Shown here piece after piece: positions 55,931 to 62,382 of a DNA stretch of 64,000 nucleotides. The notes beneath the pieces were generated by a model. The model worked only from the letters and a program-made list of their open reading frames with translations, ran no database searches and was not told the DNA's origin. The translations under genes were made by a program, and so were the position numbers. This DNA is from Clostridia bacterium (lineage in GTDB: Bacteria; Bacillota; Clostridia; UBA1212): positions 4,374-68,373 of the forward strand of contig JAFSVU010000020.1 in NCBI GenBank assembly GCA_017444825.1, written 5' to 3'. Numbering within the stretch: position 1 is the stretch's first letter; every line of letters begins with the position of its first letter.

Positions 55931-56008
55931 GGTGGCTATAGCTCAGTTGGTTAGAGTACCAGGTTGTGGCCCTGGGGGCCGTGGGTTCGAGTCCCACTAG
56001 CCACCCCA
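55931..56008 (+). tRNA. tRNA-His (anticodon GUG) with G-1 and encoded CCA
   Basis: Acceptor stem GTGGCTA/TAGCCAC with extra 5' G paired to C73. Anticodon loop TTGTGGC. T-arm GTGGGTTCGAGTCCCAC. 3' CCCA. Confidence 0.85.
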
Positions 56009-56215: not shown

Positions 56216-56230
56216 CCACTAGCCACCCCA
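56216..56230 (+). repeat. Direct repeat of the tRNA-His 3' end (att-like)
   Basis: CCACTAGCCACCCCA is identical to 55994-56008, and 17 of 18 bases match with the flank included. Confidence 0.6.
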
Positions 56231-56405: not shown

Positions 56406-56535
56406 ACGCAAACGAAGTGGTCCAAGCGAATACAATCTTATAATGCTTGAAACACGCAGTCGGCGTCTCTTGCGGTGACGCATTCGTACGCTATTGATCA
56501 AAGTCCCAGGGCTGTTTTTGTTATCAACAAATTCG

Positions 56536-57129
56536 TTACTCTTCGGAATAACTTCTCAAAAAATGATCGAATCCGAAAGACGATATCTTTTCAAGGATTT
56601 CGGAAACCGCCTCGGCAGACGGAGAAAAACCGTCGATGATCCATTTTCTGTAAACAGCGATCCTTCCCGCGACGGCAAATGTGAGGATCATATCGATTTG
56701 CGCAGGCGGAATCGACGTTTTTGAATTCAGAGTTGCCTTTAGCTTCTCCCTGACCGTATAGTTGATTTTTTCAAGAAAATTGATATTCTGATTGGCGAGC
56801 AATATTTTTGAATAAAACCCAATCTCAGACATTATCTCTTCGTTGACTTTTTCTAAAAACTGTTTCCGGCCGTAGATAAAATCGTCAAGATCTGTGTTCT
56901 CAAGAAGAACTTTGAACCTCGACAAAACAATATCCTCTATATCAGCTTCAATGTCTGCAATGGTCTTATAGTGCCGGTAAAAAGTCGTTCTGTTGATATT
57001 GCTTGCCTCGCACAAATCATTTACAGAGATGTAATCGCGATCTCTTTGTGACAGCAATTCCGCATACGCCTTTATGATTTCATCCCTTGTGGCTCTTGCC
57101 CGAGGATCTGAGCAATTCCTGTATAGCAT
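56536..57129 (-). CDS. TetR/AcrR-family transcriptional regulator
   Basis: Start MLYRN after GGGAG RBS. HTH ISVNDLCEASNINRTTFYRHY. Confidence 0.7.
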   Translation of the reverse strand: MLYRNCSDPRARATRDEIIKAYAELLSQRDRDYISVNDLCEASNINRTTFYRHYKTIADIEADIEDIVLSRFKVLLENTDLDDFIYGRKQFLEKVNEEIMSEIGFYSKILLANQNINFLEKINYTVREKLKATLNSKTSIPPAQIDMILTFAVAGRIAVYRKWIIDGFSPSAEAVSEILEKISSFGFDHFLRSYSEE

Positions 57130-57427
57130 CTTTTTTCTCCCAAAAAACATGAAATTCTCAACTTCTGCAACACTTTTCCCGGAAAAACGTTGCACAACTC
57201 CCGGTTAATTCATAGTATAATGTACTTGATGGTGAGTGTCAATGCAGGCCGATTGTTTTTTGCTGAAGAAATATATATGTGATCTGTGTGGCTTGGAAAC
57301 AGCTACAGGATCTCTTGATGCTGGTGTTAAATCCGTGGTGAAAAGACAACTCACTCCAATTGGTTTGTACAACGCTTTAATAAAGGATGCGTAGTTTCAC
57401 AAGAGCAAAGATTGGGTTTAGGAGATA

Positions 57428-58153
57428 ATGCAAATGAAATATAGAGTAGTAATTATTATAATGTGTGTTTTAATCTGCCTATGTGGCTGCTCGCCTAGCC
57501 ATTCTAATTTGCCACAAGACAACATATGTGTCAAATGGAAGTACCATCTCTCACCTTACCAACGCTCATCGTTTGTCTACAATGAGATTGAATATAGATT
57601 AGTAGATTCACAATGGGAAATTGATGAAGCCTCAACCCAAAAAATAGGTACCCTTTTGACGGGGGGGACTGGAGGAAGTTCGGCCCCGATAGTTGTATTT
57701 GGCATCCCAGTAATCAGTGGTTATCGAGATGCATATACATTTAGGTCTAATGAAGAAGAAATAAAGTTTATTGCGACCGCGGAAGCTATTTGGGTTGATT
57801 CTAGAATCAATTTCGACGACAAGGAAAACTTATCATTTTATAAACTCGGCATAATTATTGATTCGATATGTGACGAGAATAGTAATGAGTTAACGGCAGA
57901 AAAAAACTTTACTTTCGAAGAAATGATTGATAAGTCAGTTATTATCGAACAACAGGAGATTGCTACATGTTCATATAGGGTAAGACTATACTTAGAAGAA
58001 GTGAAGGGTTTGTTTTGTTACATTGAAATTGTTCGCATAAATGACTTACTTTATACCCCATTACAAATGTGTGCTTACATTAGTGGACAAGGACAGCAAT
58101 TAGTCTTACTAACAGACGAATGGACGAAATGCATCCTAAACCTTATCACTTGA
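57428..58153 (+). CDS. Hypothetical lipoprotein (AT-rich island cargo)
   Basis: MQMKYRVVIIIMCVLICLCGCS lipobox. RBS AGGAGATAATGCAA-ATG. Confidence 0.5.
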   Translation: MQMKYRVVIIIMCVLICLCGCSPSHSNLPQDNICVKWKYHLSPYQRSSFVYNEIEYRLVDSQWEIDEASTQKIGTLLTGGTGGSSAPIVVFGIPVISGYRDAYTFRSNEEEIKFIATAEAIWVDSRINFDDKENLSFYKLGIIIDSICDENSNELTAEKNFTFEEMIDKSVIIEQQEIATCSYRVRLYLEEVKGLFCYIEIVRINDLLYTPLQMCAYISGQGQQLVLLTDEWTKCILNLIT

Positions 58154-58723
58154 AGTGGTCTGGTATGGAAAAGTATTAGTGGGTAATGTGCTATACTATA
58201 CATGGCAAGGATGAGTAGAAAAATGCCAGGCAACAATTGGAGTGTGATGAAAAAGCCTTAGCTGTTTCGACAACGCAGTGTGATGTTTTTTCACCAAGGT
58301 AACGCTACCATCAGGCCCGTGTGGGGGCGACTCCATACAGGTTCAAGGCGGCGGCTCCGCACCAAATGGGACAAATCCGAACTCTAAGCCGATTGGCGAA
58401 GGGTTCGGATTTGTCGTTTATTTCGGCGATCTGAATTTGACCTCAGGCAAAAACAAACCAAATTGAAAAACGGAGTTCAAGAAAATGAATTTGAACATAG
58501 GTAAAATCGGAGTCTGGGGACTCCGGCATTATGAATTTCTTGAATATAGCGCACCAAACTGGACACTTCGGCCGCACTGATTGAACAGTTGCGACGCAGA
58601 AAACTGAACACCCTCGTCGTTTGAAACTGAACAGTATCGTCGGAGAAGTTGAACGCCGAAAATACAGGCGGTAATATGTTGCTACACGCAAGAGCGTGAA
58701 TACAACATAAGGAGGTCAAGAAT

Positions 58724-59291: not shown

Positions 59292-59546
59292 ATGACGATT
59301 GTCCCCATGCGTGATCTCAAAAACACTGTTGAAATTGAGCGTCTCTGCGCTGAAGGCGGCCCTGTATTTGTAACAAAAAACGGATACGGAAGGCTCGTTG
59401 TGATGGACATTGAGTACTACGAAAAAACAATGGGCAATATCTATGAAGCCGGACTTGTGAATGATGGCCTTTCTGATCTCGAAAACGGCAGGACAATTGA
59501 CGGCGATTCTGTAAAATCAAGGATAAAGGGAAACTATGGACTCTAA
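59292..59546 (+). CDS. Phd/YefM-family antitoxin (orphan, convergent to doc)
   Basis: MTIVPMRDLKNTVEIERLCAEGGPVFVTKNGYGRLVVMDIEYYE. Upstream TATATAAT -10. Confidence 0.65.
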   Translation: MTIVPMRDLKNTVEIERLCAEGGPVFVTKNGYGRLVVMDIEYYEKTMGNIYEAGLVNDGLSDLENGRTIDGDSVKSRIKGNYGL

Positions 59547-59619: not shown

Positions 59620-60000
59620 TTAACCATCAATATGGTTTTTTATCCAGCTCAACAGATCCTCATAATCTATCTTTCCCGAGGCAACGCCAAGGATGATATT
59701 GGTTAATTCCTCCTGTGTATAGGTTAATTCAGTATCGTTTACAGCCAGGAAAACTAACATCGAATGCGCACCTATTCTTTTGTTGCCGTCAATAAACGCA
59801 TGATTCTTTACAAGACCGAAGCACAGACGTGCAGCCTTCTCAATCACTGTCGGAAACAGTTCTGTGCCATCAAAAGACTGGAACGGTGCCGAAACCGCCG
59901 AATCAAGAAGCCCTTCGTCGCGAAGTCCGGCAGCTCCGCCAGTTTCCCGCAATAGGTGTTCATGGAGCAAAAGAACCTGTTTCTTGGTGATTATCTTCAT
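59620..60000 (-). CDS. doc: Doc/Fic-family toxin
   Basis: Fic motif HAFIDGNKRIG. Confidence 0.8.
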   Translation of the reverse strand: MKIITKKQVLLLHEHLLRETGGAAGLRDEGLLDSAVSAPFQSFDGTELFPTVIEKAARLCFGLVKNHAFIDGNKRIGAHSMLVFLAVNDTELTYTQEELTNIILGVASGKIDYEDLLSWIKNHIDG

Positions 60001-60251
60001 TTTGAGAGCACCTCATATGCCTGTCGGTTCTTATCGATCAAAGACTTAGATACTGACAGCAGCTCCTCGTCGCTGACTGTGACGGCATTGTTTGTCTTGC
60101 GAATTTCAAAAGGGATACCGTTGTAATCAACAGAAGACCTCAAAAAAACCGTTATGGCCGAGGACATATTTAGCCCAAGTTCGGCAAACAGTTGCTCCGC
60201 CCTCTTTTTCAGATCCTCATCAATTCGAATATTTAAGTTTGTTGTTGCCAT
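59997..60251 (-). CDS. RelB/DinJ-family antitoxin, translationally coupled (ATGA) to doc
   Basis: MATTNLNIRIDEDLKKRAEQLFAELGLNMSSAITVFL (ribbon-helix-helix). AAGGAG RBS. Confidence 0.65.
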   Translation of the reverse strand: MATTNLNIRIDEDLKKRAEQLFAELGLNMSSAITVFLRSSVDYNGIPFEIRKTNNAVTVSDEELLSVSKSLIDKNRQAYEVLSK

Positions 60252-60391
60252 AGAAATCAACTCCTTTCGCAATATCATTGTACTGAAATCCGAAAGAATA
60301 GTCAATACATTGTAAAGATATTTTCTTTACAATGAGAAGCATTTATTTCAAAAACGCAATTTTACCAATCTATTTTTATTGAAAAACCAAT

Positions 60392-60488
60392 ACAAAAATG
60401 CTACCATACCCGCATAATAGCAAAATAATAACATTTGCCTTTGAGCATAATTAAAGTTTGCCCGAGGGATAGTCAAAACACATCTCGC
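60392..60488 (+). repeat. 97-bp direct repeat, copy 1 (upstream of ATPase cassette)
   Basis: acaaaaatgctaccatacccgcataatagcaaaataataacatttgcctttgagcataattaaagtttgcccgagggatagtcaaaacacatctcgc. One mismatch to copy 2. Confidence 0.9.
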
Positions 60489-60512
60489 CCCAGTTTAAAA
60501 ACAAAAAATCCG

Positions 60513-60541
60513 TTGATAATTTCTAAAAATATGTTACAATA
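60513..60541 (+). promoter_or_regulatory. Promoter TTGATA-16/17-TGtTACAAT for the ATPase cassette
   Basis: ttgataatttctaaaaatatgttacaat. Imperfect palindrome AAAAC-N2-GTTTT just downstream. Confidence 0.45.
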
Positions 60542-60599
60542 GCCTTGACAACAAAATCAAAAACGCAAAACACGTTTTTAAATCGCGGAGGCATTATAA

Positions 60600-61753
60600 T
60601 GAAACTTCTCAGATTTACAGCTCAAGGGCTACCGCTTTTCAAAGAAAAGCTCGATATTTGTTTTTACGCAACTCAGCGCATTTCGGAGGAACAAAAAGAT
60701 CTGCTCTATCCGCTGTTCTCAAATGTTTACCTAAATACCACAAGTGGCTTCATCGGAATCAATGCTTCCGGAAAAACATCGGTACTGAAAGTCATCCTTC
60801 TGATTCTCGGGATACTTAACAATGAGCCGATAAACTACATTGAAACCAAAGATATCCTTGGCGATGCAGATAACGTTGTTATAAATACGTACTTCTACTC
60901 CGATAAAAGCAAAGAAGTCTGCAGATTGGAAACAACTATAACGGGAAACAGGGCTAAACCTGACGGAATAGTCTACAGCATTGTTTCTGAGAAACTCTGG
61001 TCTAAGAGGACAGATGAAATAGCCACCCGCAAGAGCATGCTTGATTTTGAAGGCAGAGAACCCGTAATGATCAGAAGCGGTCTGGAAGACTACCTCTCCG
61101 AAGATGTAAGCATTCTGATAGCAAGGAACAAGAGAATCGGCGAAAGAGTAAACTTTGTAAATCTTCTTCAGTTCACAAATATAAATGTGCTTCCTTTCTC
61201 TGAAGATATCCCGTCAGAGGTTATAACCTTTCTTGATCCAACAATAGAAAGCCTGCATTTTGGCGAACAGGATAACAAAACCAATATCGGGCTGAAATTC
61301 ATTGGTAAGGAAGAAATTATTCTCAGCAACCCGGTAGAACTCAACAACTATCTCTCTTCAGGCACTGTGAAGGGAATGATCATATTTACATTGGCGCAGG
61401 AAGTGCTCCGGGATGGTGGTTACCTTGTTGTAGATGAAATCGAGAACCATTTCAACAAAGAAATCGTCACAACATTGATGCGTTTCTTCATGGATGCGAG
61501 GTTTAATAAAAATGGCGGAACTTTGGTCTTCTCGACGCATTATCCGGAGCTGCTGGACGAGTATGATCGGAATGACAGCATCTATATTACAAGAAACCGC
61601 AACGGAATCACTGTGGATAATCTGTCTGCGATCCTCAAGCGAAATGATATTAAGAAGAGTGATGCGTATCAAAGCGGATTTCTCGAAGGAACCACCCCTG
61701 TGTATGAGGCGTATATCCGGCTAAAGAAGAGCATTGCAAAAGCACTCAGTTAG
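60600..61753 (+). CDS. AAA_21/ABC-type ATPase (defence-associated family type)
   Basis: GGAGG RBS, MKLLRF.... Walker A GINASGKTS. Signature-like LSSGTVKG. Walker B YLVVDEIENHFN. H-loop VFSTHYPELL. Confidence 0.7.
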
Positions 61754-61762
61754 GAGGCACCA

Positions 61763-62284
61763 ATGGAATTGGCGAAATATAAGGCCTGCATTTGCGAAGG
61801 TTCCGCCGAGCAAGCCATCATTGACGTTCTTCTGGATAATGCACTCCTGATTTTCTCCAGAGAAGACATGCTGGAGGAAAGTGTTATTCGGTGCAGAGAC
61901 GGCAAGCAGTTCGAAGCCAAATATTTGAGAAAAGGCTTTGCAGACAAGATATCTGTTATTCGCGTGCTTGATTCAAGGCGTGAAAACTTCAAACTCAGTA
62001 AAGCATATGAGCAAAAGGTGGATGTCATTAATATTGTCACCGCACCTGAGATTGAGATGTTGATAATTCTGAATGAAGATAAGTACTCAGAATTCAAAAG
62101 ATCCGGAGAAAAACCAAGTGAGTTCTGCAAGAAGCATTTGAAGATGTCGAGTGTGAAGACCTATGATTTTGTGAAAGAATACTTTTCAGATCCGTCTGTA
62201 TTGGTTGCATCGATTAAAGAATATCACAGAATATCGAAAAAACGTAAAGGCGAATATACTTTACTTGAGCTGTTGAAAGATTAG
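61763..62284 (+). CDS. Small partner protein, possible TOPRIM/RloB/DUF4276-like nuclease
   Basis: 173 aa. N-terminal ACICEGSAEQAIIDVLL (Glu motif) and acidic DVINIVTAPEIEMLIILNED. Starts 10 nt after the ATPase stop. Confidence 0.5.
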   Translation: MELAKYKACICEGSAEQAIIDVLLDNALLIFSREDMLEESVIRCRDGKQFEAKYLRKGFADKISVIRVLDSRRENFKLSKAYEQKVDVINIVTAPEIEMLIILNEDKYSEFKRSGEKPSEFCKKHLKMSSVKTYDFVKEYFSDPSVLVASIKEYHRISKKRKGEYTLLELLKD

Positions 62285-62285
62285 A

Positions 62286-62382
62286 ACAAAAATGCTACCA
62301 TACCCGCATAATAGCAAAATAATGACATTTGCCTTTGAGCATAATTAAAGTTTGCCCGAGGGATAGTCAAAACACATCTCGC
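62286..62382 (+). repeat. 97-bp direct repeat, copy 2 (immediately after cassette stop codon)
   Basis: 96 of 97 bases identical to copy 1. Spacing 1894 bp. Confidence 0.9.

Follow-up and report, generated by a model that had tools for sequence, protein, structure and literature searches.

A short-partner ATPase–TOPRIM gene pair between 97-nt direct repeats in a Clostridia bacterium, a candidate variant of the split-OLD anti-phage class

The subject of this analysis is a two-gene cassette in a Clostridia bacterium, located towards the end of a 64,000-nucleotide (nt) stretch of contig JAFSVU010000020.1 (assembly GCA_017444825.1), hereafter called the window. All coordinates are those of the window unless another locus is named. 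The cassette encodes an ATP-binding cassette (ABC)-type ATPase and a small partner protein of 173 amino acids (aa), and it is bracketed by two nearly identical direct repeats. Its features, from left to right, are these:

60392–60488, no strand: left copy of the 97-nt repeat, which is local DNA from the intergenic space of the RelB and DUF6273 genes; 5 nt separate it from the cassette DNA conserved in other genomes
60489–62285, plus strand: inserted cassette, 1,797 bp, comprising the promoter region and the genes for ATPase and partner; its DNA is conserved across unrelated neighbourhoods
60498–60514, plus strand: Box 1, imperfect palindrome AAAAC(G)-N-CGTT over the −35 hexamer; candidate operator
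60513–60540, plus strand: promoter, TTGATA, 16-nt spacer, TG-n-TACAAT (extended −10); 10 of 12 positions match; position conserved across loci
60559–60579, plus strand: Box 2, palindrome AAAAACG-N7-CGTTTTT between the −10 element and the ribosome-binding site; candidate second operator
60599–61753, plus strand: ABC-type ATPase (AAA_21), AbiLi-like, 384 aa from the ATG, with Walker A, LSSGT signature, Walker B and H-loop
61763–62284, plus strand: predicted stand-alone TOPRIM nuclease (the partner), 173 aa, with a TOPRIM core at residues ∼1–98 and a helical domain at ∼99–173
62286–62382, no strand: right copy of the 97-nt repeat, followed after 33 nt by the DUF6273 lipoprotein gene (ATG 62416); the sole copy in strains that carry a RelE/HTH_3 module

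The 97-nt sequence is present in exactly two copies in the window, in direct orientation, and these differ by one base (A/G at repeat position 39); a shuffled-sequence control gave no match. The identical arrangement, mismatch included, was found in four independent metagenome assemblies, and we therefore rejected an assembly artefact as its source. The spacers that separate the repeats from conserved cassette DNA are 5 nt (CCCAG) on the left and 1 nt (A) on the right. Across unrelated neighbourhoods, the conserved DNA has its left limit ∼105 nt ahead of the ATPase ATG and its right limit at the partner stop codon or close to it; most contexts have no conserved DNA 3′ of this codon, and some lineages have added a terminator of their own. 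Because an Rfam scan of 59–64 kb returned no family, the repeat corresponds to no known RNA. A promoter-like site (TTGAAA-17-TACCAT with a preceding TG) lies across the left edge of both repeat copies (60379–60407 and 62273–62301). At the right copy its −35 hexamer is formed by the last codons of the partner gene, and judging from these letters the DUF6273 gene may have kept a promoter after the insertion.

The cassette's own promoter-like site at 60513–60540, just upstream of the ATPase gene, shares the region's top score with two minus-strand sites and is the only one of the three that has the TG. The TTG at 60545, at which the program-made list of open reading frames starts the ATPase, falls inside this promoter; we took ATG 60599, which is preceded by GGAGG at a distance of 7 nt, as the start codon. 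Each gene has its own ribosome-binding site. The two reading frames are 9 nt apart, and the GGAGG of the partner overlaps the ATPase stop codon, which suggests that translation of the partner is coupled to that of the ATPase. The promoter region also contains conserved imperfect palindromes of the form AAAAACG-N5-7-CGTT(TTT), the second ∼61 nt downstream of the first: most of 69 distinct upstream regions have the Box 1 motif at a distance of ∼95 to 108 nt from the ATG, and many loci have the Box 2 motif ∼34 to 47 nt before it. By analogy, the two palindromes are probably operators for autoregulation.

The ATPase possesses a complete ATP-hydrolysis motif set, GINASGKTS (residues 53–61), LSSGT (252–256), VVDEIENH (277–284) and STHY (312–315), and these ABC motifs are invariant among its relatives. 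It matches Pfam AAA_21 (PF13304) with E = 4.1e-12. The best PADLOC model was AbiLi (PDLC02335; E = 1.9e-29, 100.8 bits), the type of ABC ATPase encoded by the first gene of AbiL of Lactococcus lactis, in a match that places residues 2–365 on positions 49–284 only of the 326-position profile. The second was AriA (PDLC02980, 304 positions; E = 8.6e-14), whose alignment covers the protein residues and the profile span that Pfam AAA_21 also covers; PDLC02979, the specific model for AriA, gave an E-value of 3.8e-5 only. Further PADLOC matches (HEC-01, NsnB, MAD3, PtuA and GajA) are likewise defence ATPases, and among the source names of thousands of close homologues are ‘AAA family ATPase’ and ‘predicted ATP-dependent endonuclease of OLD family’.

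An ABC ATPase that works with a nuclease is also the logic of SbcCD and Rad50-Mre11, and the pair might thus be a housekeeping DNA-repair or chromosome-maintenance factor with a RecF/SbcCD/SMC-like ATPase. The ATPase does show a weak SMC_N match (Pfam; E = 0.007, 16 bits versus a 40-bit cut-off). However, no NCBIfam housekeeping model came near its cut-off, with ABC models at 13–17 bits against thresholds of several hundred and FtsE far below its own, and the protein groups with the defence ATPases named above. Moreover, the distribution of the pair is patchy, over at least 48 unrelated neighbourhoods that include plasmids, an element resembling an integrative and conjugative element (ICE) and predicted proviruses, and the cassette can be replaced by a toxin-antitoxin module. 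We therefore regard a housekeeping role as very improbable.

The partner carries the motif CICEGSAEQ at residues 9–17. By sequence it had no match in Pfam, NCBIfam, PADLOC 2.0 (no hit at E ≤ 1) or the PDB chains, a marginal one in PHROGs (phrog_1303, E = 0.058) and no homologue in the INPHARED phage collection, and a profile of 87 relatives gave chance-level matches only against the PDB. The family nevertheless comprises 2,083 close homologues in 897 clusters at 50% identity, mostly of 170–200 aa. In an alignment of the 87 members, which extends down to 35% identity, E12, G13, E16, D70 and E98 are invariant, and R67, E74, T93, P95, E96, K132 and Y154 nearly so. The AlphaFold model of the partner, with a predicted local distance difference test (pLDDT) score of 96.7, displays a TOPRIM-type fold, with the conserved Glu that follows strand 1 and a metal-binding cluster of acidic residues, and it resembles PH0156 (2P62; the best structural match) and the OLD TOPRIM region. 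The top Foldseek hit, 6nk8, was below significance; a fold search of BFVD gave nothing significant either, with an RloB-like phage protein at rank 11 (E = 0.18). PH0156 was also the reported top HHpred match of a lactococcal AriB, the TOPRIM effector of PARIS (PMC11381338), and the partner residues E12, E16, D70, E74 and E98 occur in the same order and at nearly the same spacing as the metal-binding residues E26, D30, D88, E90 and E122 of AriB (PMC11464382). Some of the 87 relatives weakly matched Pfam OLD-like_TOPRIM (6/87) or PADLOC AbiLii (3/87; best E = 9.1e-5); ten divergent members that were tested separately against the AbiLii model gave no match. The fold matches, the AriB-like acidic residues and these weak matches together lead us to predict that the partner is a TOPRIM nuclease of the OLD/AriB kind, which by its sequence stands outside all four partner families on which the annotation of such systems relies: TOPRIM-Old, DUF4435, RloB and DUF4276.

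Two family members deserve mention. In a 277-aa protein (P0055), an extra PF14267 (DUF4357) domain is fused to the partner, a possible clue to what the nuclease binds or senses. In addition, a 47%-identical homologue of the partner on the Ligilactobacillus salivarius plasmid pBNS11-360kb (NZ_CP089851.1; locus L109, 5983–6525) carries the RefSeq label ‘N-6 DNA methylase’ (WP_095759350.1), apparently an annotation error.

Much of this layout had been anticipated. The original prediction had described a cassette bracketed by two 97-bp repeats with a one-base difference, an ATPase with the motifs GINASGKTS, VVDEIENH and STHY, a partner with an N-terminal CxCEG…E motif and a dedicated TGn −10 promoter; we found each of these. 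Its proposal that the short partner marks an undescribed variant agrees with the failure of any Pfam, PADLOC 2.0 or NCBIfam model to recognize the 173-aa protein, and structure prediction bore out the suspected TOPRIM fold.

Next to the properties of the two proteins stands the constancy of their association. Wherever upstream sequence existed, the ATPase gene directly preceded the partner gene, in > 100 loci and down to ∼30% identity. Among species-representative loci fetched with the partner, 80 of 80 had the ATPase gene or its 3′ end directly upstream, 10–20 nt away; the same pairing was seen, down to 28–30% identity, on the IMG/VR contigs with upstream sequence (33 fetched) and is kept at 30–47% identity on megaplasmids of Ligilactobacillus (L. 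salivarius) and Bifidobacterium. ATPase and partner were separate genes in all loci examined, and their identities co-vary (r = 0.86; 82 loci). Non-synonymous divergence (dN) was 0.11–0.37 with synonymous divergence (dS) saturated in nearly all comparisons, so protein identities of 70–80% reflect strong constraint and not recent spread. Hence, the pair is under strong purifying selection, and this in both Bacillota and Actinomycetota.

The genomic contexts of the pair are diverse, with at least 48 distinct neighbourhoods. The two-gene unit is widespread in gut Firmicutes; the partner family is common in human and animal gut Lachnospiraceae and is also found on megaplasmids of Lactobacillales and Bifidobacterium. 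In a common human-gut organism (L006–L015), the cassette lies between cobalamin-synthesis genes and an HD-domain gene. A near-identical context recurs in ∼25 species of different genera (Dorea, Gemmiger, Intestinimonas, Alitiscatomonas and others; L062 and the similar loci L054–L081), in which the cassette is accompanied by genes for a Y-family polymerase, ImmA/IrrE, an HTH_3 regulator, MazF and two tyrosine integrases; this ICE-like setting is probably a broad-host-range integrative element. On the mobilizable L. salivarius megaplasmid, the pair closely precedes an ArdC-like gene and a toprim-domain gene and has an adhesin gene as a neighbour, and on a B. longum plasmid it stands among YafQ and GNAT/DUF1778 genes. 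The cassette is also present on 33 IMG/VR contigs and in predicted proviruses. Settings typical of defence genes include toxin-antitoxin genes, an HsdM gene and the ICE-like element with ImmA/ImmR. Such a distribution, together with the presence of RelE/HTH_3 in place of the cassette in two related strains, shows that the unit is not syntenic across relatives.

How does the pair compare with known systems? PARIS likewise combines an AAA_15/21 ABC ATPase with a separate TOPRIM effector, and it shares with the cassette the 2P62 match and the order and spacing of the acidic residues. In contrast, AriB belongs to DUF4435 (PF14491) and has a mass of ∼35 kDa, whereas the partner lacks a PF14491 match and is of ∼20 kDa; AriA, at ∼55 kDa, compares with an ATPase of 384 aa here. 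AbiL resembles the cassette in its first gene, but the adjacent partner gene does not match AbiLii. In the OLD family (P2 Old, class 1 Ts OLD, class 2 Bp OLD and GajA), ATPase and nuclease are parts of one polypeptide and not, as here, products of two genes. Gabija has a UvrD-type helicase partner, and the cassette encodes none; GajB, cited in the original prediction as a small-nuclease partner, is a helicase and not a nuclease. By partner-family criteria, the system belongs to neither AbiL nor PARIS. Both have been grouped with RloAB and OLD by the PARIS papers and by a 2026 review of lactococcal Abi systems.

On the strength of the AbiLi and AriA matches, the TOPRIM fold and the accessory contexts, we consider it probable, with moderate confidence, that the segment 60489–62285 is a self-contained two-gene operon of this ‘split OLD’ anti-phage class (PARIS, AbiL, RloAB), in a variant with a short partner; the original prediction of a defence cassette formed by an ATPase and a TOPRIM-like protein is supported on each point that the analysis reached. 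None of the three outcomes that were to refute it, a partner without a nuclease or TOPRIM fold, an ATPase of the housekeeping kind, and a unit syntenic in all relatives, was observed. In PARIS, a phage anti-restriction protein activates the system, whereupon the nuclease is released and tRNA is cleaved (PMC11464382); AriB cleaves tRNA-Lys, and P2 Old cleaves tRNA anticodon arms (PMC11464382, PMC12445682). By analogy, we infer that the PARIS mechanism is the best-supported one for the pair. An oligomer of the ATPase would hold the nuclease inactive, as in PARIS and P2 Old, until a phage-derived cue, sensed by the ATPase, would release or activate the nuclease in an ATP-dependent step. The nuclease would then cut tRNA or, less likely, DNA, as GajA does, by two-metal catalysis via E12, E16, D70, E74 and E98, and cleavage of tRNA would stop growth of the infected cell.

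Several points weigh against this assignment. No experiment ties the partner family to phage resistance. The ATPase, whether as a single sequence or as a profile, had no sequence match among the PDB chains, PARIS included; its predicted structure (pLDDT 39.9, from a shallow alignment) was unusable. The equivalence of partner and AriB residues is one of order and spacing, not of superposition. Finally, the window partner itself matched none of the AbiLii, DUF4435, RloB, DUF4276 and OLD-TOPRIM models, which at best drew weak matches from 3 to 6 of its 87 relatives.

PARIS itself behaves as a type II toxin-antitoxin pair (reviewed in PMC13064643), which brings into view an addiction module that would stabilize islands, plasmids or integrative elements, with the nuclease as toxin, the ATPase as antidote and no dedicated anti-phage role. 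Its neighbours would suit such a module, namely the toxin-antitoxin genes in the window, MazF in the ICE-like context, and YafQ and GNAT/DUF1778 on the B. longum plasmid, and the palindromes over the promoter resemble toxin-antitoxin autoregulation. Also, at two loci (L125 and L094) the cassette is the sole gene content left between old repeats, as fits a module that is hard to lose. However, the ATPase finds its best matches among defence ATPases and keeps complete ATP-hydrolysis motifs that a passive antidote would not need, and in plain chromosomal settings, such as that between the cobalamin and HD-domain genes, there is nothing to stabilize. Defence and addiction roles are, moreover, not exclusive. 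We judge an addiction role without defence unlikely and retain the split-OLD defence operon as our reading of the pair.

With regard to how the cassette came to lie between its repeats, two related strains (L101 and L111) are informative. Exactly at the cassette site, both carry a RelE + HTH_3 (HigBA-like) module. In both, the junctions of RelE/HTH_3 correspond to window positions 60344 and 62264; the DUF6273 protein of L111 is 95% identical. The site is therefore a hotspot. Each of the two strains has one copy of the 97-nt sequence and, next to it, a decayed remnant of the last ∼33 nt of the partner gene, and their state seems to descend from a cassette-bearing one. We conclude that the window repeats are two copies of the local DNA just upstream of the DUF6273 gene, placed at the insertion junctions, and not transposon ends. 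The original prediction of a recent, cassette-type acquisition at a hotspot thus stands as to the hotspot, for which an alternative occupant is now at hand; as to the repeats, they proved to be duplicated local DNA and not ends of an element, and ‘recent’ rests on one mismatch.

Flanking direct repeats are not peculiar to the window. At a threshold of E < 1e-6, they were detected in 9 of 48 distinct contexts versus 0 of 98 mock placements in the same loci (Fisher p = 2.6e-5), L079 and L125 being two further flanking-repeat cases. The repeats of L024, L050, L079, L083, L092, L094 and L125 measure 46–268 nt. Comparison of seven repeat sequences revealed neither relatedness, nor a common core motif, nor a junction microhomology common to the loci. 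Several of them copy the ends of recognizable genes:

L083: 46 nt, perfect; last 46 nt of tRNA-Cys; no integrase nearby
L125 and L092: ∼100–115 nt; 3′ half of tRNA-Ser plus terminator; distal copy decayed in the tRNA part, not in the terminator
L050: 175 nt; 3′ end (with stop codon) plus terminator of tpiA
L024: 118 nt; 3′ end (with stop codon) of a DUF3786 gene
L094: 268 nt; a stretch without a long open reading frame

At the tRNA-Ser loci, the copies are arranged in tandem: L092 (3457–3708) has three copies of the tRNA-Ser 3′ end plus terminator, one genuine and two decayed, and L125 has two, which suggests repeated recombination at an attachment-like site. L079 (1965–2160) contains a small open reading frame of ∼66 codons whose ATG overlaps the partner stop codon (ATGA) and which holds the second copy of a 93-nt repeat; the ‘repeat’ of this locus may be a paralogous coding segment or a third coupled gene. 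In L024 and L079, 12 of the 13 differences between repeat copies are synonymous (binomial p ∼5e-6 versus an expectation of 0.3), from which it follows that the copies diverged as coding sequence in separate lineages and do not stem from fresh fill-in.

A number of explanations were tried and rejected. A transposon or insertion sequence does not fit a unit of two genes without transposase, without terminal inverted repeats (none were found at the ends of the window cassette) and with a duplication length that varies from 46 to 268 nt. An integron gene cassette would be a promoterless reading frame with a conserved attC site behind it, but the unit has its own promoter, and there is mostly no conserved DNA after the partner stop codon. 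The target of a single site-specific recombinase should have left a core motif across the repeats. Flanks carried along from earlier sites were dismissed because the extra DNA between repeat and cassette in seven loci was unmatched in the other fetched loci, except for L092/L086. Short repeats of 33–38 nt in L022, L032, L054 and L056 were not accepted as insertion scars; those of L032, L054 and L056 look like similar terminator hairpins.

For the origin of the repeats taken as a question by itself, our tentative preference, at somewhat less than even confidence, is Campbell-type single-crossover homologous recombination of a circular or ends-in copy of the cassette that itself carried the stretch of target DNA. 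Recombination between the repeats would then regenerate the cassette circle.

The tRNA-Cys, tRNA-Ser, tpiA and DUF3786 ends listed above are, however, also classic integrase targets. Our second choice, less probable than the single crossover, is that the repeats are attachment (att)-type duplications made by a tyrosine integrase acting in trans, and the unit an integrase-less mini-island with attL and attR. This would resemble a CIME, i.e. a cis-mobilizable element that has kept attL and attR and lost its integrase (PMC5704250). The differences in L024 and L079, almost all of them synonymous, are in keeping with a surrogate 3′ end carried by the element, and the island in the window adjoins a tRNA-His gene with a 15-nt repeat of its 3′ end nearby. 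Against this, no recombinase or integrase gene lies between or beside the repeats in the window or L083, and seven repeats without a common core would require several different integrases. The window repeat is intergenic and not at the 3′ end of a gene. The gap between left repeat and cassette is of 1 to 22 nt at three loci (the window, L079 and L092), and the right-hand gap of the window falls in this range too; arm-type binding sites would have no room on that side. CIMEs and minimal mobile elements are, like the cassette, small integrase-less segments between direct target repeats, and minimal mobile elements likewise show exchange between conserved flanks, as do the cassette and RelE/HTH_3 at one site. 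Unlike CIMEs, the cassette is a single two-gene operon with a repeat 1 to 22 nt away on at least one side (on both in the window), and it occupies unrelated sites in different species; we saw no decayed element backbone around it and found no cognate integrase.

A target-site duplication, caused by staggered breaks ∼97 nt apart or by replication template switching and followed by fill-in, would agree with repeats that nearly abut the window cassette and differ by the one base expected of fresh copies, as well as with lengths that vary between loci as in an imprecise process. Since the synonymous differences in L024 and L079 show that the copies there do not derive from one template, and no junction microhomology is common to the loci, we hold this origin unlikely overall; for the window itself, a simple staggered-cut duplication is possible.

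More doubtful still is a reading in which the integrase-less operon of 1.8–2.3 kb is itself the minimal mobile unit, which repeatedly settles at the 3′ ends of conserved genes and tRNAs and generates locus-specific repeats of 46–268 nt. The nuclease/ATPase pair would break DNA and so stimulate recombination in a homing-like manner; alternatively, by a so far undescribed route, RecA would drive excision of a circle and its re-integration via portable target homology. If this were true, defence modules of the ATPase + TOPRIM class would carry their own means of spread.

Other observations temper the preferred account, insertion of the cassette by a single crossover. An empty site for the window locus was absent from the contigs found by exact-protein look-up (DUF6273, Doc, RelB and the 95%-identical DUF6273 variant), all of which carried either the cassette or RelE/HTH_3, and two scans of Joint Genome Institute (JGI) metagenome contigs, with the window repeat and with the L094 repeat, found none either. 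As L101 and L111 keep both the decayed partner 3′ end and one repeat copy, the order of events at the window site is ambiguous. In addition, the synonymous differences in L024 and L079 and the decayed distal tRNA fragment in L125 fit att-type duplications equally well. The recurrent flanking repeats, which have no integrase between them, are the one truly unexplained feature of the cassette.

The surroundings of the cassette in the window are those of an accessory region, in line with the AT-rich island next to toxin-antitoxin genes that had been proposed. GC content is 0.33–0.46 around the cassette versus ∼0.53 before 56 kb, and the neighbours are genes for a RelB antitoxin and a Doc/Fic toxin, a Phd-like open reading frame and the DUF6273 lipoprotein gene. 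The RelB-family antitoxin gene (59997–60251) overlaps the Doc/Fic toxin gene (59620–60000), an unusual toxin-antitoxin pairing, and the separate Phd-like frame (59292–59546; below the Pfam cut-off) is convergent toward the Doc/RelB pair. A tRNA-His gene is located at 55932–56008; its last 15 nt (CCACTAGCCACCCCA) recur at 56216–56230, and just beyond this repeat GC content falls from ∼0.53 to ∼0.40. From 56 kb to the window end, the whole AT-rich region has the appearance of an island, or of stacked island remnants, at tRNA-His. In another assembly of the same organism (ERZ27256819; L001, 1–2500), TnpV, a 352-aa Fic protein and a type I HsdM methylase are encoded upstream of the Phd-like/Doc/RelB block, where the window (∼56500–58700) has a TetR regulator and a 241-aa open reading frame; the island is therefore mosaic between strains.

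The partner belongs to a large family, of ∼900 clusters at 50% identity and thousands of sequences, that neither Pfam nor NCBIfam nor PADLOC 2.0 recognizes; giving this family a name would make censuses of defence systems in gut bacteria more complete. The long, locus-specific repeats around an integrase-less cassette provide a concrete and testable case of how small defence cassettes reach new sites. With 173 aa, the partner may be smaller than any other stand-alone TOPRIM effector that is coupled to an ABC ATPase, and the pair would offer a compact system for asking what ATPase-gated TOPRIM nuclease immunity minimally needs, a question that the 2026 review of lactococcal Abi systems raised as open for AbiL, RloAB and similar pairs.

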